64,000 bases of DNA from Ostreococcus lucimarinus (taxonomy: Eukaryota). A program made the translations under genes and the position numbers. The notes beneath the pieces were generated by a model. That model did no database searches and had not been told where the DNA came from. It worked only from the letters and a program-made list of their open reading frames with translations. This document shows positions 1 through 46,496 of the stretch, piece after piece. Each line of letters begins with the position of its first letter. Within the stretch, counting starts at the first letter, position 1. The stretch is from the NCBI GenBank assembly GCA_000092065.1, contig CP000583.1. One strand, given 5' to 3'.

Positions 1-612
1 CGCGTTGGTGAGGACGTTGGAGTGAACCGGGTCCGCAACGTGGGATTGCCAGTTGGCGATCGGGCCTTCTTGGGTGGCGAGCGCTTGGAAGATGCAGCCC
101 AACCACGCGAACATGGACAAGCGGCAGTGCTTGAGCTCCTTGATCTTGAGTTCTTCAAGGTCGCCAGACTCGGCGAGGCCGAGCGGGTCGAAGCGTCCAC
201 CCGGGTTGACGTCACCGACGGTGAGGCCATCATCGAACGGAGAGTCGGAGATACCGGTACGGTACGCTTCCGCGGCGCCGACGAGAACGATCTCGATGAT
301 GAGAACGTTCCAGAAGGACGGGTAGCCAGAGCCTTCCGGCGCGAGCGGGGCGACGGCGCCCGGGAACTTGTCCGCGACGGCGGTGCAGTCATCCGGGGTG
401 CACAAGGTACCCGCGGTGAACCACGGGATGCCGGTGCCGTTTTCGGCGGCCCACGCACCGGTGACGCCAAGCATCGCCCAGCGGCCGTGGATCACTTCAC
501 GCTCGGCGTTCTTTTCGTCGCCGAACGGGATGATCGGGGATTCGCCACCGCCCGGGTAGGTACCGAATTCCGGGTAGATGTCAGCCTTGACCGTCGTGGA
601 GACAGACTTGGC
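1..612 (-). CDS. Lhcp: Lhcp chlorophyll a/b-binding protein, copy A, exon 2. The C-terminal ~10 codons are cut off by the window start.
   Basis: The reverse complement of 1..612 is identical to exon 2 of the plus-strand copy at 1979..2614; ORF-track peptides at 53..325 and 368..559 repeat exactly at 2266..2538 and 2032..2223. The encoded peptide (…AKSVSTTVKADIYPEFGTYPGGGESPIIPFGDEKNAEREVIHGRWAMLG…) has the LHC Chl-binding helix motifs. The acceptor AG lies at complement of 613-614. Confidence 0.8.
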
Positions 613-1086
613 CTGCGATCGAACGAAGTTTATATTCTCCAGTCAGTCTCGTCGTCTCGTGATCGCGCACGCCCATCCGTCGTCGTCCGCCGACGCGCCC
701 GCCGCTCTAAAAAGTCTGTTCCCCCCCCGATCCACGTTTTCACGGTTCACGACTCGTGCCGACCCCCATCCGCGGCGATAAGAGCGAAACCGTATCTCGC
801 GCGCGGCGTCCCGCCCGATCGCCCGCGTCGCGCGCGCGTCGCCCGCGACCGACGCCTCGACCCCCGACGTCGCGCGACGCGCGCGACACATTTCCAGCAT
901 CCACCGCGCGCCGTCCCGCGCCCGTCCGCGCGACACCGCCCGCGCGAGGGCGCCGCGCGCGATCGCCCACCGCGATCGATCGCCCGATCGTTCGTTCGTT
1001 CGTTCGACGCGCGCGCGTCGCGTCCCTCGCGCGCGTCGTCGTCCCGCGCGTCGTCGCGCGTCGCGCGAAGGCTAAAAAATACGCAC

Positions 1087-1152
1087 TTGGATCTTGGTCG
1101 CCTTGAAGGCGGCGACGCGGCCGACGAAGGAGGAAGCGAGAAGGGCAGACAT
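1087..1152 (-). CDS. Lhcp: Lhcp copy A, exon 1 (MSALLASSFVGRVAAFKATKIQ, transit-peptide start)
   Basis: The reverse complement of 1087..1152 equals 1489..1554. ATG is the complement of 1150-1152; the donor GTGCGT follows as complement of 1081-1086; phase 0. Confidence 0.75.
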
Positions 1153-1488
1153 TACGACTGAGTGTGCGTGAATGCCGCGCGCGGCGCGCCACCGGTGGCG
1201 GTCGAGGCGCGCGCGCGGGCGCGGCCTCGCGGCGAACGAGATCTTCCGTGATGGGCGAAATACGGCGTGGAATGCGTGAATATCTCGCGATCGGGGTGTT
1301 TTATGTTTTATGCGTCGCGGCGCGCGCGATCGAGATCGCGATCGACGCGTTCGGGTTCGCGCGTCGCGCGCGATCGATCGTGCGTCGATCGATCGCGCGA
1401 TCGATCGATCGATCGATGGCGCGCGATCGATGGCGCGCGATCTCGCGCGCGCGCGCGAGCGGCATACCTGCACACGCACATTTCTACA
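1153..1488. promoter_or_regulatory. Shared bidirectional promoter / 5'UTR region between two divergently oriented Lhcp genes. It has a dense cluster of CGATCG hexamers and a short tandem gttttat duplication.
   Basis: Only 336 bp separate the two ATGs (1152 minus, 1489 plus). CGATCG occurs more than a dozen times between ~1320 and 1450. Confidence 0.5.
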
Positions 1489-1554
1489 ATGTCTGCCCTT
1501 CTCGCTTCCTCCTTCGTCGGCCGCGTCGCCGCCTTCAAGGCGACCAAGATCCAA
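1489..1554 (+). CDS. Lhcp: Lhcp copy B, exon 1
   Basis: ATG at 1489. Twenty-two codons (MSALLASSFVGRVAAFKATKIQ) are followed by GTGCGT at 1555. Confidence 0.8.
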
Positions 1555-1978
1555 GTGCGTATTTTTTAGCCTTCGCGCGACGCGCGACGACGCGCGGGAC
1601 GACGACGCGCGCGAGGGACGCGATCGCATCGCGCGCCATCGATCGACGGCGTGAGATACGCGACATCGCGCGCGCGGCGCGCATCGCGTCGTCGCGACGC
1701 GGGACGTGCGACGCCGCGAAGGGCGTCGCGGGAAGCGATGTCGATGATTATTTGTGATCGCGACGCGACGCGCGTCGGCGTCGCGACGCGTCGCGACGGG
1801 CGAGCGGGCGCTCGATCGCCGCGGCGATAGGATAACCGCGATACGGATATTTTCTATCTGTTTGTTTGACTGGACGAAGCGCGGGCGCGGGGCGGAGGAC
1901 GCGGGTGATTGGATCGATCGTTCGAGCGAAGAGAGGAGACTGACGAAAGAAACGCGATGTGTTTTACGAAATGAACAG

Positions 1979-2614
1979 GCCAAGTCTGTCTCCACGACGG
2001 TCAAGGCTGACATCTACCCGGAATTCGGTACCTACCCGGGCGGTGGCGAATCCCCGATCATCCCGTTCGGCGACGAAAAGAACGCCGAGCGTGAAGTGAT
2101 CCACGGCCGCTGGGCGATGCTTGGCGTCACCGGTGCGTGGGCCGCCGAAAACGGCACCGGCATCCCGTGGTTCACCGCGGGTACCTTGTGCACCCCGGAT
2201 GACTGCACCGCCGTCGCGGACAAGTTCCCGGGCGCCGTCGCCCCGCTCGCGCCGGAAGGCTCTGGCTACCCGTCCTTCTGGAACGTTCTCATCATCGAGA
2301 TCGTTCTCGTCGGCGCCGCGGAAGCGTACCGTACCGGTATCTCCGACTCTCCGTTCGATGATGGCCTCACCGTCGGTGACGTCAACCCGGGTGGACGCTT
2401 CGACCCGCTCGGCCTCGCCGAGTCTGGCGACCTTGAAGAACTCAAGATCAAGGAGCTCAAGCACTGCCGCTTGTCCATGTTCGCGTGGTTGGGCTGCATC
2501 TTCCAAGCGCTCGCCACCCAAGAAGGCCCGATCGCCAACTGGCAATCCCACGTTGCGGACCCGGTTCACTCCAACGTCCTCACCAACGCGGCCAAGGGCT
2601 TCGGCTTCTACTAA
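1979..2614 (+). CDS. Lhcp: Lhcp copy B, exon 2: prasinophyte-type light-harvesting chlorophyll a/b-binding protein
   Basis: Acceptor cag at 1976-1978. The continuous frame reaches TAA at 2612-2614. The peptide carries EVIHGRWAMLG, GPFDPLGL-like and second-helix ELKHCRLSMFAWLG motifs typical of LHC. Confidence 0.85.
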   Translation, partial: AKSVSTTVKADIYPEFGTYPGGGESPIIPFGDEKNAEREVIHGRWAMLGVTGAWAAENGTGIPWFTAGTLCTPDDCTAVADKFPGAVAPLAPEGSGYPSFWNVLIIEIVLVGAAEAYRTGISDSPFDDGLTVGDVNPGGRFDPLGLAESGDLEELKIKELKHCRLSMFAWLGCIFQALATQEGPIANWQSHVADPVHSNVLTNAAKGFGFY

Positions 2615-2914
2615 GCGGTTCACCGCCTTGGTAGCTTCGTCATAGGGTAGCTTGATCGGCGGCCGTCGACTTCGCGTCTACGGTCACCTCCAAGATTTCT
2701 CTGACAGCGCTGGGAATTCCCGACTGCTTTTGGGGCTTTGTCTCTTCAATAACATTCGTTTTAATGATGCATCTCTCGATGTTTGATTACTCTTCGCCTC
2801 CGCGTCGCCGTCGCCGCGCTCTGGATAGCCCGCAGACGCGCGTCCCGGCATCTTGCCCCACACACGCGCGCGCGCGTTCCCTTCGCCCCCGTGGCCGGAT
2901 CGAACGCGAAGAAC

Positions 2915-4462
2915 ATGGCGACGACGATCGCTTCGCGCGCCGTCGCGGCGACGACGCCCCGCGCGCGCGCGCGCGCGCGAACGAATCCCCGCGCGTCGTC
3001 CACCTCGCGTCGGACCCGCGCGATCGCCGACGCCAACGCCGAGGCGACGGCCGAGGACGCGCGCGAGCTCGCGGCGTGGTTATCCTACGACAAGGGCGTG
3101 GACGCGAGCGGATTAGTGTTCAAAGAGGGCGCGAGAGGCGAGGTGGAGGTGGCCCTGCGCGGAGACGTCGACGCCGGGGCGCGCGTGCTCGCGGTGCCGC
3201 AAGACTGCGCGGTGACGTCCGTGGACGTCGACGCGCACCCGATCGTCAGCGGATTGGCCAAGGGGCGACCAGAGCTCGTCGGGTTGGCGCTGTGGTTGTG
3301 CGCGGAGCGCATCAAGGGTGGAGCGAGCGATTGGGCGCCGTACGTGAAGACGCTCGCGGCGAATCCAGACGCGCCGTTGTTTTGGACCGAGGCGGAAGAT
3401 TTCGCGCTGTTGAAGGGGTCGCCGATCGTGAATGATGCGGTAGAACGCTCGAGGAGCGCGAGGGAGGAATATGCGGCTATCGTGGAGGTCATTAAGGGTG
3501 ATCCCACGGCGTTTCCCGCGGAGGCGTACGAGTTTTTCACCGAGGAGCGCTTCGTGGACGCGCTGGCGACGGTGTGCGCCAAGGCGACTTGGTTACCCAC
3601 GGCATCGTGCTATGCGTTGGTGCCTTTGTTAGACGTCATCACGATTGCTGGATCTCCGGTGCCGGGCGTTTCACCGCCCTCGGCGAAGGATGGAATCGCG
3701 CGGTGCGCTGCGGATTACGACGTCGACAGCGCGTGCGTGGTTTTATCCGCCGTCGTCAAGGCGCCGGCGAACTCGCGAGTCGTACAGTTGGATCCGTTGC
3801 AAAGGAACAACGGTGAGCTGTTCTTGAACACTGGTCGCGTTGATCAGAAGCATCCAGGGGATTATTTGTACATGCGGACCGAGATTCAGCCCTCCGATCG
3901 CTTATTTTCGGCGAAGAAGCAAGTCCTCGAGGGTATGGGTTTCACCGCCGAAAACCAGTACTTTCCGGTGTATGAAGATCGTATGCCGACCCAGTTGTAC
4001 TCTTATCTTCGTTTTGCCCGCGTTCAAGATCCCGGTGAGATGATGGCGGTGTCGTTTGAGGAGGATAAAATCGTTTCGGTGATGAACGAATACGAAATTC
4101 TTCAGCTTCTCATGGGCGATTGTCGAGAGTTAATGTCTGAATACGACACGAATGAGGAAGACGAGCTGAACCTGTTGAAGCTCTCGGACACGATGCGCGT
4201 GCGAGAGATCGAGGCGGCCAAGCTTAGAATGTCCGAGAAGAAGCTCATCGGTTGCACGATGACGGCGGTTCGCAAGCGCTTGGCGCCGATTCGTGGCATC
4301 CCAACCAAGCAAGGCATGGAAGACCCGAACCAGGATCTTTTAGACATTTTCAACGCGATCGAGAGCATTCCAAATAAGCCAAAGGAAATGATGGAAGACT
4401 TCAAGAAGTGGGCGCGTGGGGACTACGAAGACATCCCCAAAGGCGGGGGTGGCTGCGGGTAG
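2915..4462 (+). CDS. SET-domain lysine methyltransferase, Rubisco LSMT / SETD3-like, with an Ala/Arg/Ser-rich N-terminal presequence
   Basis: First ATG in the ORF is at 2915. It has a SET-like core (…LFWTEAEDFALLKGSPI…) and a C-terminal Rubisco-LSMT substrate-binding-like region. Gene model is single-exon. Confidence 0.6.
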   Translation: MATTIASRAVAATTPRARARARTNPRASSTSRRTRAIADANAEATAEDARELAAWLSYDKGVDASGLVFKEGARGEVEVALRGDVDAGARVLAVPQDCAVTSVDVDAHPIVSGLAKGRPELVGLALWLCAERIKGGASDWAPYVKTLAANPDAPLFWTEAEDFALLKGSPIVNDAVERSRSAREEYAAIVEVIKGDPTAFPAEAYEFFTEERFVDALATVCAKATWLPTASCYALVPLLDVITIAGSPVPGVSPPSAKDGIARCAADYDVDSACVVLSAVVKAPANSRVVQLDPLQRNNGELFLNTGRVDQKHPGDYLYMRTEIQPSDRLFSAKKQVLEGMGFTAENQYFPVYEDRMPTQLYSYLRFARVQDPGEMMAVSFEEDKIVSVMNEYEILQLLMGDCRELMSEYDTNEEDELNLLKLSDTMRVREIEAAKLRMSEKKLIGCTMTAVRKRLAPIRGIPTKQGMEDPNQDLLDIFNAIESIPNKPKEMMEDFKKWARGDYEDIPKGGGGCG

Positions 4463-4505
4463 TTTTAGAAAATTTTAAGCGCGTTTATATTAATGTACCC
4501 ACTCT

Positions 4506-6242
4506 CTACTTGCTAATGTCTTCCTCGTCTTCGTCTTCGTCCTCGTCCTCGTCCTCGTCCGCACTTTTGTCGAAAATTTGTTCCAAAGCGTTGACGACGT
4601 CAGCGTTCGTATCCATCAAGAAGAAGAGATCGTCGAGTAACGCTTGCTGAGTCTCTTCTTCCGTTTCGAATTCACGCTGCGGCAGCTCCTCTAATTCCAT
4701 GAAGTCATTGATCTCGAGGTTGAAGTACGCCTGCTTCAGAGCCTTGACTTCATCTTCGCTCACGACGGAGGTTACTACGCCTGGGGCCATGGTACCGAGA
4801 CGCCCGCATCGACCGGCTCGATGTAAATAACTGCTCGTTGAAGGAGCGTCTAAACTATAAATGTGCTGAATATTTGGCATATCCAGCCCCCGCTCACTTT
4901 CAGACGTGCACACTAATATGCTAGCCTTGTTGTTCTTGAAATCTTGAACCGTTCGCAAAGCCTCGGTGCCCTCGGGGAGCAACATCAACAGCTTGTGTTC
5001 GCCCCAGAGCGCCTTCCGCACGGGCCCAGCCGTAACTTTCGCCGCTTCGCTATTCGGAACAAAAATGAACGTTCGCGGCGGTGGTGCATCTTCTCCTGCT
5101 TCTTCGAGATCTTTACGAAGCTGTCGCGTGAGTGCGATAAGCTTGCGAGAACGGTCCTTCACGACGAGCATTCGGTGCGTGATGCCCGGGGGCACGCGCA
5201 TACCGCCGCCCGTGGTGATCCAAATGGGATCCTTCATTAGACCTTTAGATGTGCACCGATCGACGATCTCTTGCGACAACGCCACGCCACTAAGACACAC
5301 GCATCGGTCCTCCATCACTGGCTCGTATGGTGACGGTTTGAGCAACACATCCATCGCATCTGGGTGCTTGTCGAAGAGCACATCCGCTTCGTCGGCGATG
5401 ATGAATTGTGCCAGATCCACCTCTAAATCTCCTTGTAGCTTCAAATCTTTGAGCTCTTCGGGCGTTCCGACGACGATTTCCGCGATGCATAAGTCGGGAT
5501 CCGGATTCAACACGTGCTTTTCAAAATCAAACGCGCCCTTCACCTTCACGCCGCGGGGACCGATGTATCTAAAGATGTTACCCGAATCTCCTGGTCTCTG
5601 CGTGCTCACGTTCCCTCCGAGTATGCGCCATATCAGCATAGAGTTCTGTACCACCAGTTCTCTCGTCGGCACGATCACCAGCAACTGCAGCATCCCTCTC
5701 CCCACGTAATTCAACCCGTCGATGCTCGGCATGAGGTACGCCAGCGTCTTCCCGCTCCCCGTCTGACTCGAAATAACCACGTCGTTCACGTTCATCATCG
5801 CCAGCGCCGCCCGTCGCTGAATCGCCGTGGGATATCGGAACCCTAAATCCTCCGCCCGAGACGCGATCCAGTTCGCCATTCCGAGCGACCGCCAATCGAG
5901 CAACTGCTCCCGCGGGTCCGTCATCCCTTGCACGCGCCGCAGCTTTTCCGACACCCTCTGCGCCAACCCGTAATCCTCCTCAAATATCGCCTTATTCAGC
6001 GCCGTGGTGAGAATGTTTTCATCCTCCGTCCCGTCCGCGTCGAACCCATCGAGCGCAGACGCGTCGCTCGCTCCGTCGTCACCGGTCCCGCCGTCACCGA
6101 ACGGCGCCGCGTCTCGCGCGCGCAATCGGTCGCCTCGCGCGCGCGGGCCCGCGCGCGGACGCGCGCGACGCGTCGATGACGACGCTCGCGACGTCCGCGC
6201 CCGTCGCGGGACGCTCGCGCGATGTCCGCTCGCGACGCGCAT
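4506..6242 (-). CDS. DEAD-box ATP-dependent RNA helicase with an Arg/Ser-rich presequence and acidic DEDEDE tail
   Basis: Q motif GFRYPTAIQ, motif I SQTGSGKT, VIVPTRELV, ADEAD, the SAT-equivalent, and HRAGRCGRLG. The ORF-track start is a GTG; the first real ATG is the complement of 6240-6242. Confidence 0.8.
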   Translation of the reverse strand: MRVASGHRASVPRRARTSRASSSTRRARPRAGPRARGDRLRARDAAPFGDGGTGDDGASDASALDGFDADGTEDENILTTALNKAIFEEDYGLAQRVSEKLRRVQGMTDPREQLLDWRSLGMANWIASRAEDLGFRYPTAIQRRAALAMMNVNDVVISSQTGSGKTLAYLMPSIDGLNYVGRGMLQLLVIVPTRELVVQNSMLIWRILGGNVSTQRPGDSGNIFRYIGPRGVKVKGAFDFEKHVLNPDPDLCIAEIVVGTPEELKDLKLQGDLEVDLAQFIIADEADVLFDKHPDAMDVLLKPSPYEPVMEDRCVCLSGVALSQEIVDRCTSKGLMKDPIWITTGGGMRVPPGITHRMLVVKDRSRKLIALTRQLRKDLEEAGEDAPPPRTFIFVPNSEAAKVTAGPVRKALWGEHKLLMLLPEGTEALRTVQDFKNNKASILVCTSESERGLDMPNIQHIYSLDAPSTSSYLHRAGRCGRLGTMAPGVVTSVVSEDEVKALKQAYFNLEINDFMELEELPQREFETEEETQQALLDDLFFLMDTNADVVNALEQIFDKSADEDEDEDEDEDEEDISK

Positions 6243-34530: not shown

Positions 34531-35244
34531 CTATGACCAACTTCTCGTCTTCGCGTGCACGCGAGCCACATCCGTCATGTAATCCCCGCTCAATCGAGCG
34601 TACGCCGTGCGATTCGCGCGCTCGATCTCTCGTCGAGCGCGCTCCTCGTCACCATTAATCTCATAAAATAACCCCAAATATAACGCGCTATAAAACTCAT
34701 CGCTCGCGTTCGAGCGTCCGGCTTCGCGCAGGCGCGTCGCCGCCTCTTCCGATCCCTCCGCGAACAGCGCGAAAACGCTCGACATCACCGGTCTCGAATC
34801 CCGACCGGTGATCAACATATTTTCTCTCGCGTACGCGATCCCTTTCTCCGGATCCATCGCCTCCGAGGCGAAGCACCACACGCTCTCCTCCGTATCGTTC
34901 GGGTTCTGCGCCACGTCCAGTCGAAACTGCTTCGCCGCCTCCTCGTACGCCCCCGCGTAGTACAGCGCCAGCCCGCGCTGCCACATGTACGCGCTAAACC
35001 TCTCATCGCTCGCGATGGCGTCGTCGAACGCGTCGATCGCGCCTCTGACGTCGCCTCTGATAAACTCCCTCGCGCCGCGCTTGATCTTTTCGCTCGCCAC
35101 CGATGCGTTCGCTCGCTCCGCGCGCGCGCACGTCGCCACGATCGCCGCCGCGACGCCGCGCAGAGCGTCGCGACGATTCGTTCGTCGTCTCGCGTCGCGC
35201 GTCGCGCACGCACGCGGCGCGCGCGCGCCGCGAGCGGCGGACAT
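34531..35244 (-). CDS. TPR-like repeat protein with a twin-arginine-type presequence (possible thylakoid-lumen targeting)
   Basis: RRTNRRDALRGVAAAIVATCARA, then helical repeats with W/Y/A periodicity (AYMWQRGLALYYAGAYEEAAKQF…). Only weak family assignment. Confidence 0.4.
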   Translation of the reverse strand: MSAARGARAPRACATRDARRRTNRRDALRGVAAAIVATCARAERANASVASEKIKRGAREFIRGDVRGAIDAFDDAIASDERFSAYMWQRGLALYYAGAYEEAAKQFRLDVAQNPNDTEESVWCFASEAMDPEKGIAYARENMLITGRDSRPVMSSVFALFAEGSEEAATRLREAGRSNASDEFYSALYLGLFYEINGDEERARREIERANRTAYARLSGDYMTDVARVHAKTRSWS

Positions 35245-36351: not shown

Positions 36352-37231
36352 TCACTCGAGCGACCACAGTTCGATGCGAGCCGTCCTGAACATGTTCTCC
36401 GAAGCCAAGGGCGGGGACTGAAAAGTCTCGCACTCTCCGCTCGAACCTTGAAGTAAATCCTCTTCTAAACGAATCGCGTGCGCGCTACCACCGCCGACGG
36501 ATAACGAGTCAGCGGCGCCGAACATGTAGTAATCGTTCGCCCCGCTCCACGCGTACTTGACGCCCTCGGGCGCGAGCGTGAACACGAAACTCTCACCCGT
36601 GCCGCCGTATCGCGAGTGCACCTTCCACGCCTCGGTGCAAAACGCGCCAAAAATAGCCCCACCACTATCGCTCACGAGGAGCACCGTGTTCGCCTTCCCG
36701 CTCGCGCGTCTGTAAAGACTCTTCAACGAAATCCCGTCGCGCTTGGTGCTGTACGCCAACGCCCACTCCCGCATGCGATACATCGCCGGCAGCGCCTCCC
36801 GCAGCGTCTCCATCTGTTCGACCGTCACTATATCACTCTTCCCATTCATTTTCATCTCCGTCTTGATCGTCCTCTCCGCCGACGTCGACAACTCGCTCGC
36901 GCCTCGCCGTCGACGCCTCGCCGTCCCGTTCCCCTCCCCCTCCTCCCTCGTCGTCCCCTCTCCCTCCTCCTCCGCCTCCATCGTCGCCGTCCACGATTCC
37001 AGCACCTTCCCTAAAAACCCCTCGTGCGCGTCGTCCGCTCGCACCCGCGCGCTCGTCGCCTTCCCGGCGCTCGTTCGATACAGCACGTCCACCGTCCCGT
37101 CGCCGTCCTCGCCGCGCACGACGCCCACGAATGACCGTTTATTAATCTCCGGGTGCTTCACCCTCGGATCCAGCACCGCGCGCGCGTCTCCCTCGCCCGC
37201 GCGCGTCGGTCGCTCGATTCGCACGCAGTTC

Positions 37232-37266
<35 letters not shown>

Positions 37267-37308
37267 CCCGAGGACGTCCCGCCAAAACGTCCCGAACACC
37301 TCCTCCAT
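36352..37308 (-). CDS. TLDc-domain protein (OXR1/NCOA7-like) with a poly-Asp tract
   Basis: C-terminal TLDc: LLVSDSGGAIFGAFCTEAWK…YGGTGESFVFTL…KYAWSGANDYYMFG…SLSVGGG…CETFQSPPL. ATG (MEEVFGTFW…) at complement of 37306-37308. The longer ORF-track model reads through Arg-rich low-complexity sequence. Confidence 0.7.
37239..37270. repeat. (GTC/GAC)10 trinucleotide microsatellite encoding poly-Asp in the TLDc protein
   Basis: gtcgtcgtcgtcgtcgtcgtcgtcgtcgtc read directly. Confidence 0.9.
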
Positions 37309-37687
37309 TTCGCGCCCTTCGTCGTCGTTCGTCGTCGTTCGTCGTCGTTCGTCCGGCGTTCGTTCGTTCGCTCGCTCGTTCGTTCGTCCGGCGTTCGTCC
37401 GTCGTCGTCGCGCCGCGCGACGCGCCGTGTCGCGCCGGTTCGCGCGCGCGATTGGCGCCCGAGACACCCGGAAGTGGCGCGGCCGCCCGAGACACCCGGA
37501 AGTGAGAAAAGCGCCGAAAAAGAGGGGAGACGAAGAGACACAATGACGACGCGAACGACGACGGCGCGCGCGCGGCGACGGACACACGGCGACGCGCGCG
37601 CGAGGACCGGGCGGTGACGATCGCTTCGATCGATCGTCGCGGGCGTCGATCGACGACGACGACGGCGAAACGCGGTGGTGGACGAGG

Positions 37688-40084
37688 ATGACGACGACGA
37701 CGACGACGGCGCGGACGCGCGGGACGAAGGCGGAGGACGACGACGCGACGCGCGGCGAGGAGACGGCGAGCGAGGGACGATGGCGAGCGACGCGAAGAAA
37801 GGAGCGGTCGATGTCGGTGGAGGCGGCGATCAGCGCGGCGATGCGGTCGATGCAGGGAGGGGCGATGACGCCGACGCCGAGGTGGCGGGCGGTCGGGGAC
37901 GTGGCGAGCGCGTGGGCGTTGATGACGGCGCACGAGTTGGATTGGCTCGGCGCGTCGGGGGCGCTCGGGAGCGCGGTGTGGGGGACGGCGATCGTGGGGG
38001 CGATGGTGCACTTGGTGTGCGGGTTCGCGCGGTACGCGTCGTACACGCACGCGATGGTGGACGGGTGCGCGCTGGCGGCGGCGGCGGCGGATCGGGCGCT
38101 TTCGCGAGGAGACGCCGCGGTGTGGGCGCTCGTACGACCGTTCATTCGGCTCGCGTTGCTCACGCGCGTGTGCGCGGCAAGTGCGCTCTGCATGGACGCC
38201 GGGACGTGGGCGGTGCTGAACGGGAGAGGCGTGCGAGGTGTGTTTCATCGACTCGAGCACGCCGGCGCGGTGAACATCGCGGTGTGCGTCAGCGTGGGAA
38301 TCATTTCTCTCGGTCCCGTCGCGACGGCGCAACACCGGCTCGGCGCGGAAATTCTCACGCGTTACTTTCACGTGAGAGTCGACGATGAGGTTCTTCGCGC
38401 GATCAAACGCATGGAACAGGTGTTCGCCGCCGCTGCCGCGGCGACGGCGTTCAACGCCTTGTTCAACCTCACGCGCCGATCATTACTCGGTCGTCCGCTG
38501 CAAGGAATCATCGAAACTCTCGAGTATCACGCCAAGCAGGTGTTAACCGACTTGGAGTTACGACCTGGTGAGGTGCAATCTTTGGACATCGGCGTGTTGG
38601 GATATGTGCTCGACAAGATGAGCCACATCGTCAAACGAAACGAATCCGACAACGGCGGACCGGCGCTCATCGAAGCCATTCTGGAAGATCACGAAGACGT
38701 CGACGGACGCACTCGCGAATGGTTGGTGAGTTACGAAGCGAGTAACGTCAAATATGGAAAATCAGCGTCGGTGAATTCGCAAGGAGTGAACGTGTTCAAG
38801 TCGGTGGTTTCATCCTTTGCGCGCATGTCAGACGCCGGGGGGCCGTATCTGAGCGTCGACGGGGACGCGCTCAACTCTTGGTCGTTCGATGTGTTCACCG
38901 TAGGGGAAAACAAGGAGCTATTTCCGTACGTCGTGCGCATGTTTCACGAAATGAACATGTTTGAGCTCGTCGATCAGTTCAAGTTTCGTCGCTTCTTATC
39001 TGAGGTCGAAGGCATGTACCGGGATAATCCGTACCACTGCTTCAAGCACGCCGTCGACGTCACGCACACGACGTATTTATACATTTGCGCGGTGAAAGAG
39101 CAAGTCAGTATGACGCAAGTAGAAATATTCTCTCTCCTCGTTGCCGCTTTGGTGCACGATTTGGATCATCCCGGGGTTACGAACGGGTATCTCATCGCCA
39201 CGCACGATAACATAGCGCTGACGTACAACGACGAGAGCGTGTTGGAGAATCTTCATCTCTCGCGGTTCTTTTCTTTGTGTCAAAACAACGAAGACGCAAA
39301 CATTCTCTCTGCATTTGACGAGAGTACGTACAAAGAGATTCGTCGATCTATTATAAGTTGCGTGCTACACACAGACATGGCGCATCACTTCAAGCTCGTC
39401 TCGCGATTGAACGAACTCGTCGCTCTGGGTAAGAAGAACAACATCATCAACGGTTCACCGATGAAATCGACAGTCATAACGAGCACTCGTGATGATGATC
39501 CGATAAATGTGAGCGTGACGTTCAAGACAGACGACGAGCGTCAGCTGATGCTGAATGTTCTCCTGCACTGCGCGGACATCTCCAACGCCGTCAAGCCAAA
39601 CGAGCTTTGCGTCAAGTGGGCATCGCGGGTGCTGGAAGAGTTCTTCAATCAAGGCGATCGCGAACGTTCAAGAGGAATGTCGATCAGTCCTATGATGGAT
39701 CGCGAGACCACGTCGGTGGGGCTATCGCAGATAAACTTTATTGAGTTTGTTATCGCGCCTCTCTACGTGCAATTTGTGGCGGTGTTCCCAGCCCTGAACG
39801 GCCTCTTGACGCGACTGATCGAAAATCGTCGATACTATCAGGAGACGTATGAAAACGAACTCGCCGACATGACTAAAGGCGATGGCACCGATCGCTCTCC
39901 AGAGAAAGAATCACTTCGCGCGCGATTCCGCACGCTCATCGAAAAGCACTCGCTGCGTCGCTTCGTGGATGAAAGCGATAATCTCATGAAGGCCATTCTA
40001 TCGCTTCCACACACGCGACGGTCGAGCGCGACTCGTTCTTTCAACGCGATGCTTTCATCGCCGTCGAAGAAGAAAACGATGTGA
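37688..40084 (+). CDS. 3',5'-cyclic-nucleotide phosphodiesterase (class I PDE catalytic domain) with an N-terminal multi-TM region
   Basis: YHCFKHAVDVTHT…LVAALVHDLDHPGVTN…LHTDMAHHF…LLHCADISNAVKP (HD-type metal-binding PDEase_I signature). The N-terminal ~250 aa are hydrophobic helices. Start may be 37688 or 37811. Confidence 0.75.
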   Translation: MTTTTTTARTRGTKAEDDDATRGEETASEGRWRATRRKERSMSVEAAISAAMRSMQGGAMTPTPRWRAVGDVASAWALMTAHELDWLGASGALGSAVWGTAIVGAMVHLVCGFARYASYTHAMVDGCALAAAAADRALSRGDAAVWALVRPFIRLALLTRVCAASALCMDAGTWAVLNGRGVRGVFHRLEHAGAVNIAVCVSVGIISLGPVATAQHRLGAEILTRYFHVRVDDEVLRAIKRMEQVFAAAAAATAFNALFNLTRRSLLGRPLQGIIETLEYHAKQVLTDLELRPGEVQSLDIGVLGYVLDKMSHIVKRNESDNGGPALIEAILEDHEDVDGRTREWLVSYEASNVKYGKSASVNSQGVNVFKSVVSSFARMSDAGGPYLSVDGDALNSWSFDVFTVGENKELFPYVVRMFHEMNMFELVDQFKFRRFLSEVEGMYRDNPYHCFKHAVDVTHTTYLYICAVKEQVSMTQVEIFSLLVAALVHDLDHPGVTNGYLIATHDNIALTYNDESVLENLHLSRFFSLCQNNEDANILSAFDESTYKEIRRSIISCVLHTDMAHHFKLVSRLNELVALGKKNNIINGSPMKSTVITSTRDDDPINVSVTFKTDDERQLMLNVLLHCADISNAVKPNELCVKWASRVLEEFFNQGDRERSRGMSISPMMDRETTSVGLSQINFIEFVIAPLYVQFVAVFPALNGLLTRLIENRRYYQETYENELADMTKGDGTDRSPEKESLRARFRTLIEKHSLRRFVDESDNLMKAILSLPHTRRSSATRSFNAMLSSPSKKKTM

Positions 40085-44500: not shown

Positions 44501-45778
44501 GCGCTTCTTTGCCGCTTTACTCTCGCCAGCCGGCTCTTCTGGCTTGGCCTCGATTTTGATGTCAAGCTCGGCCAAAAGAGCGTCGAGGTCTTCCTCGTCG
44601 TCGGCCGCTTGCTTACCACCTTTTTTCTTTTTCTTCTTGTCCTTCTTCGAGCCACCAGTTTCGTTGGCGACGAGTTCGGGTTCGGGTTCGGGTTCGGGTT
44701 CGGGCGTCTTTTCCTTCTTCGTCGTCCCGGGCGCTTTCAAAGGCACATCATCGCCGATGGAAAAAGCAGACTTATCGAGCTCGTACACGCCATCCGCGCT
44801 ATCGGCCCAACCCATCTCCACCGCGCTGAGAATCATACCTTCACTCATGACGCCGCGCAACGGCGTCTTGTCGATGACTTGGCCGCTGGCGGGGATTTTC
44901 ACGCCGACGCCTGCAAAAATCACCAACAAACCTTTTCTGGCGTTGGCACCACCGCACACGCACCGTTTCGGTTCGTCGCCGCCGAAATCGACGGTGCAAA
45001 CTTGCAGACGATCCGCCATCGGGTGCTTGCTGCATTCGATGATCTTACCCACGACGAGTTCGGGTTCGGCGACGAGCTTTTTCTTTTTCTTCTTTTTGAG
45101 ATCAATCGCGACTTCCACCGCCGCGGCTTCCTCGTCGGCATCCATGAGATCGGCAAAGCTTCCCTTCTTCTTCTTCTTTTTGTCTTTCGTGTCCGCGGTG
45201 CGAGACTCCGAGGCTTCTTCGTCGTCCTCCGCGTCCTCGTCTTCGTCGTCCGCCATCAAAGCCGCGAAGCCGCCCTTTTTGGATTTCTTCTTTTTATCCT
45301 TCTTCGGCTTGACATCCGCCTCCATCTCCTCTTCCTCGTCGTCATCATCGCCACCACCCATCAACGGATCGTTCACGTCGTCGTCCGACCCCATCAACGC
45401 CGCGAAACCACCTTTTTTGGATTTCTTCTTCTCCTTCTTCGGCTTCGTCGCCGCCGCCGCCGCGCGCACCTCCTCCTCCGACGCGTCGTCCGCGTCATCC
45501 GCGTCGTCATCCGACCCCATCAACGCCGCGAAACCTCCCTTTTTAGACGTTTTCTTCCCCTTCCTCGGTTTCACCGCGCGCGTCTCCCCCTCGTCCGCCT
45601 CCTCTTCGTCCGCCTTCTTCGCCGCCGCCGCCAGAGGGTCCAAATCCTCGTCCGAGTCCTCCCCTCGTCCTCTCCCGCCCCGCCCGCCCTTGCCCTTCGC
45701 CGCCTTTCGCGCCTTTTTCATCTCCGTCTTCGACATCGCTCTCGCGCCGTCGTCCGCGTCTTTCGCGCCGTCGTCGCG

Positions 45779-45898: not shown

Positions 45899-46034
45899 CG
45901 CGCGGCGCGCGGGAACGTTCTCTCTCGCGCGCCGTCCGTCGTCGGCGCGCGCTCGCGCGTCGCGCGCGCGTCGCGGTGTGTCCATCGCGCCGTCGCATCT
46001 TTTAAACGTCGAGACATCGCGACGCGCGCGCGCG

Positions 46035-46496
46035 ATGCGCGCCGACGCGCGCGCGCTCGGCGGCGACGACGACGCGCGCGACGTCGCGCGCGACGTCGAC
46101 GACGGCGACGCGACGCGCGCGATGGCCGACGCCGACGCCGACGCCGACGACGCGCGCGAGGACGCGACGACGACGACGACGACGACGCCGCCGACGAACG
46201 AACGACGCGACGCGCGCGAGCGCGCCGGCGACGTCGCGCGCGCGTCGCTCGCGATCGCGCTGCTCGCGGTCGCCCTCGCGAGGCTGCGACGGTGGGCGAG
46301 GGGCGACGGCGACGCGCGCGGCGGCGCGCCGGGACGCGTCAGCAGGCGCTTCGCCGCGCGGCACAGGAAGTGTAATCGATGCGGCGCGCGCGGGTCGGCG
46401 GTCAAGGTGAAGTGCGAGCGGTGTAAAAGGTGCTGGTACTGCTCGCAGACGTGCAAGAAAGCGGCGTGGGCGCTGGAAATTTGCGAGTGTTGTTGA
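46035..46496 (+). CDS. Hypothetical small protein with one TM helix and a C-terminal Cys-rich (MYND-like) zinc-finger motif
   Basis: ATG at 46035. …SLAIALLAVALARL… then CNRCGARGSAVKVKCERCKRCWYCSQTCKKAAW…CECC. Low-complexity Ala/Arg/Asp-rich middle. Confidence 0.3.
   Translation: MRADARALGGDDDARDVARDVDDGDATRAMADADADADDAREDATTTTTTTPPTNERRDARERAGDVARASLAIALLAVALARLRRWARGDGDARGGAPGRVSRRFAARHRKCNRCGARGSAVKVKCERCKRCWYCSQTCKKAAWALEICECC

Follow-up and report, generated by a model that had tools for sequence, protein, structure and literature searches.

The two head-to-head LHCP2-type chlorophyll a/b-binding genes read from the sequence at positions 1-2614 of the window (that is, the whole 64-kb stretch of DNA that was analysed) very probably form an old pair, in a Micromonas-like mamiellophyte alga, in which recurrent interlocus (non-allelic) gene conversion, acting on the inverted copies through two blocks of homology, has preserved the identity of the exons. 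Conversion with other LHCP2 loci has probably contributed as well. Substitutions relative to a sister lineage are common to both copies inside the identical tracts, whereas the intron interiors follow the opposite, orthologous pattern.

An inverted gene pair with identical exons and diverged introns

The two genes, here copy A and copy B, face away from each other across a short intergenic region, and a tblastn search with the spliced protein found only these two Lhcp copies within the 64-kb window (G+C content, 60.6%). The features of the locus, in window coordinates, are as follows.

1..612, minus strand: copy A exon 2, its 3' end lying off the window start; 100% identical to 1979-2590 and matched by tblastn
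1086..613, minus strand: copy A intron (474 nt), GT..AG
613..615, minus strand: last 3 nt of the copy A intron, the CAG acceptor; the sole intron 3' bases in common with copy B
616..1017, minus strand: copy A intron interior, A-type (402 nt), which appears to escape conversion
1018..1086, minus strand: first 69 nt of the copy A intron, within a 136-nt perfect arm; apparently co-converted with exon 1
1087..1152, minus strand: copy A exon 1 (66 nt, 22 codons, start of the transit peptide), identical to 1489-1554
1153..1488, no strand: divergent intergenic region (336 nt) holding both 5' leaders; presumed bidirectional promoter
1162..1174, minus strand: copy A upstream motif CATTCACGCACAC, one of two matches to CATNCNNGCACAC in 64 kb
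1463..1475, plus strand: copy B upstream motif CATACCTGCACAC, the other of these two matches
1489..1554, plus strand: copy B exon 1, from sequence reading, the inverted arm and tblastn
1555..1978, plus strand: copy B intron (424 nt), read from the sequence
1555..1623, plus strand: first 69 nt of the copy B intron, in the inverted arm; apparently co-converted with exon 1
1624..1975, plus strand: copy B intron interior, B-type (352 nt), which appears to escape conversion
1976..1978, plus strand: copy B CAG acceptor, in the inverted arm
1979..2614, plus strand: copy B exon 2, including the stop codon TAA at 2612-2614; ORF 1754..2614, Pfam Chloroa_b-bind

The spliced product of 233 aa matches the Pfam family Chloroa_b-bind (PF00504; E=1.2e-24, 88 bits against a cutoff of 22.3) and is 90% identical over 99% of the query to a Micromonas commoda 'prasinophyte specific chlorophyll a/b-binding protein'; matches from Bathycoccus reach 82-89% identity. 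Among annotated NCBI genomes it has no full-length match at 100%. The predicted splice junction KIQ/AKS (ATKIQ/AKSVS, the slash marking the junction) is spanned by two 233-aa proteins from close relatives, each 97% identical to the product: P0001, the closest full-length protein, which is transcriptome-derived (from a contaminated Siedleckia transcriptome), and P0124, a JGI sequence that is possibly transcript-derived. The gene downstream of copy B encodes a Rubisco-LSMT-like methyltransferase (hereafter LSMT).

A repeat search resolved the similarity between the copies into two inverted arms, both 100% complementary. The longer (1-615 with 1976-2590, 615 nt) comprises exon 2 and the terminal CAG of the intron; the shorter (1018-1153 with 1488-1623, 136 nt) comprises 1 nt before the ATG, the 66-nt exon 1 and 69 nt of intron. 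In a global alignment of the copies, identity ends abruptly at the arm borders: the interiors (616-1017 against 1624-1975) show about 46% mismatches in aligned columns together with 76 gap columns, and the 5' leaders of the two copies are likewise about 46% mismatched. The interiors retain a weak colinear similarity (local score z=3.5, a value that two of 300 dinucleotide shuffles also reached; in the reverse-complement control z was 1.3), and the two halves of the 1153..1488 intergenic region showed no significant mutual similarity (z=1.75). The 64-kb window contains no further long repeat, and as its remaining 'repeats' are merely CG-rich low-complexity matches at 60-85% identity, the identity of copies A and B lies far beyond chance. 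The initial annotation had read the exons and the 5' end of the intron as identical between the copies, and the intron interiors and 5' UTRs as diverged. Both readings were borne out: pairwise alignment of the introns limits their identity to the first 69 and last 3 nt (that is, they are not near-identical throughout), the intron lengths of 474 and 424 nt that it gave are exact, and the two antisense-frame peptides that it had used to place the divergence (...DLACDRTKF... and ...DLACSFRKTH...) are both present in the ORF list. A refinement concerns the leaders, which despite their divergence keep a short motif in common.

In the window this motif, CAT[T/A]C-NN-GCACAC, precedes each of the two ATGs by 15-27 nt. 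The pattern CATNCNNGCACAC is matched twice in 64 kb against 0.12 matches expected, both times upstream of an Lhcp ATG, and a related form, CAT[T/C][C/T]-N2-3-GCACAC, precedes all four M. commoda copies (an exact fit in three, with one extra base in the plus-strand copy on chromosome 3) and both copies of the sister-lineage contig described below. It is the sole non-coding block conserved across species, and we regard it as a candidate core-promoter or leader element.

Age of the pair and concerted substitution of its exons

A 248-kb contig from a sister lineage (L019, ENA) is 93-95% identical to the window and carries the gene order MFS_5, Lhcp-A, Lhcp-B, LSMT. Its A-type interior is orthologous to that of the window (10.6% diverged), as is its B-type interior (8.3% diverged), and both 5' leaders are recognisably orthologous between the two (intergenic region 1153..1488 corresponding to L019 8396-8723). 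When copies A and B of the window (WA, WB) and of L019 (SA, SB) were placed in a four-way alignment, 107 intron-interior sites had WA=SA differing from WB=SB and no interior site had the concerted pattern. The same interior types recur in other assemblies, the A-type in L026 (99.75% identity) and the B-type in the metagenome contigs L001-L008 and L030-L031 (99-100% identity). Given that both interior types are orthologous between the window and L019, the duplication is older than the split of these two lineages. It is probably older than the split from M. commoda, too, as judged from gene arrangement and from a dS of 0.60 relative to the window gene. M. commoda RCC299 has two head-to-head Lhcp pairs, one of which (on CP001328) adjoins an MFS_5 gene in the same relative orientation as in L019 (E=1.5e-99 between the MFS proteins); the synteny extends to the MFS side only, the opposite flank there being a DEK_C gene. 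The alpha-amylase and BRCT flanks of exon 2 found in metagenome contigs correspond to the second M. commoda pair and to a single-copy locus in other lineages.

These observations bear directly on one alternative, a recent whole-gene inverted duplication after which interiors and leaders were rapidly scrambled by indels or slippage in CG-rich low-complexity sequence, or replaced by insertions. Exons that are 100% identical would fit such an event, as would CG-rich, low-complexity interiors with residual colinear similarity. However, A-type and B-type interiors and both leader types were already present in L019, 8-11% diverged, and because each type is orthologous in the sister lineage, the difference between A and B is long older than the identity of the exons. 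A head-to-head pair flanked by MFS occurs in M. commoda at a dS of about 0.6, and no repeat or introner-like family matching the interiors was found in the window. We therefore consider a recent duplication extremely improbable. The initial annotation had likewise held that this was not a very recent whole-segment duplication; the orthologous intron types and the M. commoda pair both support it. An introner or other repeat origin of the interiors was considered separately and rejected, as no repeated family was detected within the 64-kb window.

Inside the identical tracts the four-way alignment gives the opposite picture from that in the interiors. Of the ten substitutions between the window and L019, exon 1 holds one, exon 2 two and the 69-nt intron piece the remaining seven; every one is common to both paralogues of each genome (WA=WB differing from SA=SB), and no singleton or orthologous-pattern site was found in the tracts. 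Paralogues differ at no tract site in the window and at none in L019. The exons have a dS of 0 between paralogues, 0.018 between the window and L019 and 0.60 between the window and M. commoda, and the values between lineages mean that the zero between paralogues does not arise from frozen synonymous sites. Purifying selection alone is insufficient, as it cannot yield zero synonymous differences between old paralogues. That every tract substitution is common to the paralogues is, on this comparative evidence, concerted evolution by gene conversion, which is one of the two processes that the initial annotation had proposed. The comparison is phylogenetic and involves a single sister lineage and a single distant species.

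The distant species points to a wider process. M. commoda carries four copies on two chromosomes; these show 0-2 differences over the 633 sites of exon 2 and 0-2 over the 63 sites of exon 1, and their introns (348, 359, 143 and 329 nt) are unalignable. Four near-identical copies imply that homogenisation is family-wide and acts between chromosomes, not just within a pair. Consistent with this, M. commoda LHCP2.1 and LHCP2.2 have been reported to be identical over the region mapped by RNA-seq (PMC5344333). A conversion-tract analysis of the LHCP2 family was not found in the literature searched, outside which the key 2005 Lhcp paper lay. One possible conversion mosaic (P0007/L013, in which a B-type intron is joined to the 3' half of exon 2 of another LHCP2 variant) was left unused, a short-read chimera being an equally likely origin.

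Assembly error deserves separate consideration, as repeat collapse or consensus polishing could make slightly different exons look identical. Among short-read contigs, L020-L022 break off at exon 2 and others attach the B-type intron to four different flanks; L019 itself, and possibly the window, come from metagenome or unannotated assemblies in which short-read polishing could have homogenised paralogues. Against this, the copies are identical within each of three independently assembled sequences (the window, L002 and L019), while the sites that separate the window from L019 are the same in both copies. In the genome assembly published for M. commoda RCC299 the four copies have 0-2 differences, and as this finished genome shows the same pattern, the concern is limited. 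Nor would an artefact create a sharp border 69 or 82 nt into an otherwise unique intron. We judge such an artefact very improbable, and favour conversion as the source of the identity.

The same contigs show varied arrangements of the introns. The B-type intron adjoins LSMT in the window, L030 and L019, and adjoins the MFS flank, which belongs to copy A in the window lineage and L019, in two independent metagenome assemblies (L003 from ENA and L031 from JGI). In L005 the B-type intron has flanks of the second pair on both sides, and L025, L027 and L028 share the upstream region of L005 with a different (C-type) intron. It is conceivable, though rather unlikely, that the identical exon-2 arms (at least 636 nt) form a recombination switch that flips the 1.36-kb centre (introns, first exons and promoter) to give two isomers in the population, and that introns are swapped among LHCP2 loci by long conversion tracts. 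The arrangement in L003 and L031 could represent an inversion between the exon-2 arms or, equally, an assembly chimera. Short-read contigs of the LHCP2 family are visibly unreliable: L002 is a clear example of a mis-join, and the contigs of the LSMT homologues P0168 and P0172 end at the repeated Lhcp exon 2. Scanning metagenomes for a pattern taken out of the intergenic region gave no match, and a scan with the exon 1/intron junction gave seven loci, ascertained on the first 16 intron bases, that comprise paralogues and variants.

The 69-nt intron stub and the tract borders

The 69 nt of intron that adjoin exon 1 help to distinguish conversion from selection. Between the window and L019 this piece differs at 7 of 69 sites (10.1%), a divergence equal to that of the interiors (8.3-10.6%) and about 25 times that of the exons (3 of 702 sites, or 0.4%, with dN=0). 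None of the four M. commoda copies has an equivalent: divergence of their introns begins 3-6 nt past the donor, and only the donor consensus GTG[C/A]G is shared with the window. Its predicted folding was no better than that of shuffled sequences (z=-0.99 and -0.30), the minimum-free-energy structures differ between the lineages, and scans of the window gave no Rfam match and nothing relevant among tRNAs. No copy of the piece, or of either interior, was found at a second locus within the 64-kb window. Given the neutral rate, the absence from M. commoda and the lack of a fold signal, the piece represents spill-over of the tract rather than a functional sequence; on these comparisons it is neutral sequence within the exon-1 conversion block that has been dragged along.

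The initial annotation had proposed, as its other process, purifying selection on the exons plus a splice-proximal element, and the two parts of this proposal fare differently. Selection on the exons stands (dN=0, and a dS of 0.018 against about 0.1 in the introns, that is, evolution about five times slower between lineages). The element does not, its 10.1% divergence, missing M. commoda counterpart and lack of a fold all speaking against it. On that idea the 69 nt would constitute, for example, an intron-mediated or splicing enhancer kept by purifying selection and not by conversion. In highly expressed genes, a first intron close to the promoter often raises expression, and a sharp border of identity inside the intron would suit such an element, as the other three borders hug coding sequence. 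Other paralogues of this lineage (L025, L027 and L028) also match over some 57 nt at the start of the intron (88-91% identity), a similarity that is biased by a search demanding the first 16 nt. Yet the piece diverges at the rate of the unconstrained interior; all seven changes are common to both paralogues, which selection alone does not predict; and the border lies at 69 nt in the window but at 82 nt in L019. Moreover, the two copies in L031 (a contig that is possibly chimeric) differ at 2 of the 69 sites. Taken together with the absence of the piece from M. commoda and its shuffle-like, lineage-specific folding, these points make a functional element very improbable, and we retain conversion as the explanation of the stub.

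Tract borders are discrete and differ by lineage.

Window pair: 69 nt into the intron 5' end; 3 nt into the intron 3' end; copy A 3' end off the window
L019 pair: 82 nt into the intron 5' end; 3 nt into the intron 3' end; 12 nt past the stop
M. commoda chromosome-3 pair: 5 nt into the intron 5' end; 29 nt into the intron 3' end; 31 nt past the stop
M. commoda chromosome-2 pair: 3 nt into the intron 5' end; 5 nt into the intron 3' end; 3 nt past the stop

The 82-nt border of L019 arises because its copy A carries 13 B-type bases. Three of the four borders lie 1-12 nt from coding sequence, which is tighter than simple homology erosion necessarily predicts. Borders at exon edges could also be produced by RNA- or cDNA-templated repair from spliced transcripts, and these genes are presumably very highly transcribed. 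A spliced template, however, would delete the intron or leave it unhomogenised, whereas intron sequence has been co-converted over 69-82 nt in the window and L019 and over 29 nt at the intron 3' end in the M. commoda chromosome-3 pair. The 5' UTR, although part of the mRNA, has been homogenised by 1 nt only. We give repair from transcripts scarcely any credence and continue with conversion between the genes themselves.

Proposed mechanism and comparison with known systems

We propose that conversion would be confined to two blocks, as heteroduplex formation needs similarity. The first (136 nt) would comprise exon 1 and the 69 nt of intron next to it; the second would start at the acceptor CAG, take in exon 2 and stop about 12 nt beyond its stop codon (as seen in L019), each block presumably ending where homology ends. 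Purifying and codon-usage selection may keep the coding sequence similar enough for heteroduplexes to form, so that conversion persists. Loss of homology would have switched conversion off in the 5' leader, the intron interior and the 3' UTR, leaving the copies to evolve independently there; non-coding stretches that fall under the similarity threshold would be released permanently. The molecular route may be double-strand-break repair by synthesis-dependent strand annealing without crossover. Copies of the short exon 1 (63-66 nt) are identical where 69-82 nt of intron homology adjoin it and show at most 2 of 63 differences where they do not (M. commoda); tentatively, the stub may thus help exon 1 to stay convertible. 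Selection contributes substantially to the similarity of the exons, and its share is not exactly separable from that of conversion.

The stub shows conversion without selection, as it evolves at the neutral rate between lineages and is identical within the genome, and the adjoining exons reflect both forces. As a practical matter, LHCP2 paralogues are indistinguishable by coding sequence in RNA-seq data or metagenomes, LHCP2 gene trees will mis-date duplications, and short-read assemblies break or mis-join at these genes. The pair is a clean new instance of a well-known process in a family already known for identical copies, and reveals no new mechanism and no new regulatory element.

Within the LHCP2 family of Micromonas (LHCP2.1-2.7) and other Mamiellophyceae, the window genes share the Chloroa_b-bind domain at 90% amino acid identity. 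In common with those of M. commoda, they have two exons and a phase-0 intron after an exon 1 of 21-22 codons, and are paired head to head, one M. commoda pair having the same MFS neighbour. Proteins flanking the pair are only 43-57% identical between the window lineage and M. commoda or other homologues, the far flank of the pair is LSMT in the window lineage and DEK_C in M. commoda, and the co-converted sequence of 69-82 nt at the intron 5' end is present in the window lineage and missing from M. commoda. The introner elements of Micromonas (PMC4540971) offer another case of intron sequence that is identical between different genes; unlike these elements, the 69-nt piece joins exon 1, occurs only in Lhcp paralogues and is not a whole intron.

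Primate red/green opsins and gamma-globins, examples of conversion between inverted or tandem duplicates, likewise combine paralogue-like tracts with adjacent orthologue-like segments (PMC3924837). In the opsins, however, homogenisation affects the introns and spares a selected exon; in the Lhcp pair it affects the exons and spares the intron interiors. A further parallel is found in yeast, in which concerted evolution of duplicates from the whole-genome duplication is limited to coding regions, homology having been lost from non-coding sequence, a pattern that has been attributed to purifying selection preserving the similarity that conversion requires (PMC3924837). These ribosomal-protein and other duplicates resemble the Lhcp pair in being old paralogues with identical or near-identical coding sequence and unalignable non-coding flanks, and the same explanation has been offered for them (PMC3924837). 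Unlike the yeast duplicates, the Lhcp genes have an intron, by which the converted region is split into two blocks, and one of these blocks holds a neutral intron stub in which the signal of conversion is visible free of selection.

Combinations of flank, intron and exon at Lhcp loci

In two independent metagenome assemblies (L003, from ENA, 1-5332; L031, from JGI, 1-4733), the MFS flank adjoins the B-type intron (that is, the one with the interior of copy B's) and exon 2, whereas this flank belongs to copy A in both the lineage of the window and the sister-lineage contig L019 (compared across window 1555-4462, L030, which carries the B-type intron beside the LSMT gene, and L019). There are two readings of the arrangement in L003 and L031: crossover between the inverted exon-2 arms of 636 nt would have given an inversion isomer, or the assemblies are chimeric here.

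In the contig L005 (1-2369), a B-type intron lies between the upstream region of a third Lhcp locus and an amylase-type downstream flank. Three further contigs (L025, L027 and L028) share the upstream region of L005 but carry a different, 'C-type' intron, which has only ~57 nt in common with the start of the A-type and B-type introns (88-91% identity). Possibly, a long conversion tract has swapped introns between loci; alternatively, L005 is a double chimera. The contigs L013 (P0007) and P0009 combine a B-type intron with an exon 2 that, compared with window 1979-2614, is identical over its initial ~140 nt but has a 3' part from another LHCP2 variant (75 differences); such an exon is either a mosaic of the kind that conversion among paralogues would give or a short-read chimera.

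The gene downstream of copy B and other features of the window

Directly 3' of copy B lies a gene whose homologues carry the Pfam domain Rubis-subs-bind:

2915-4462, + strand, Rubisco-LSMT-like SET-domain methyltransferase gene

In the protein collection, identity to its product is just 81% for the next-best homologues and ~53% for those encoded on the longest contigs (up to ~1.7 Mb), so that no named genome there is a close relative of the window's lineage.

Elsewhere, at 35122-35215 (- strand), ARAGORN called a 'tRNA-???' of 94 nt, giving the anticodon loop as four bases (aacg). This stretch had no Rfam tRNA match at the gathering threshold; the call probably reflects a false positive or a tRNA with an intron. 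A 110-nt unit recurs in three tandem-like copies at 45231-45604 (69-75% identity, spacing 126-138 nt), near CG-rich triplet-repeat tracts at 37190-37750 and 46030-46220; these are probably repeats within coding sequence.

A motif upstream of LHCP2 genes

Both Lhcp ATGs in the window are preceded, at a distance of 15-27 nt, by the motif CAT[T/A]C-NN-GCACAC (frequent form, GGCATTC..GCACAC):

1162-1174, - strand, motif upstream of the copy A ATG
1463-1475, + strand, motif upstream of the copy B ATG

These are the only two matches in the 64-kb window, against 0.12 expected. The motif, or a variant one base longer, stands 5' of each Lhcp ATG in L019, L009 and L010, and of all LHCP2 copies examined across three lineages. 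As a candidate element, it may belong to the core promoter, the TSS or the leader.
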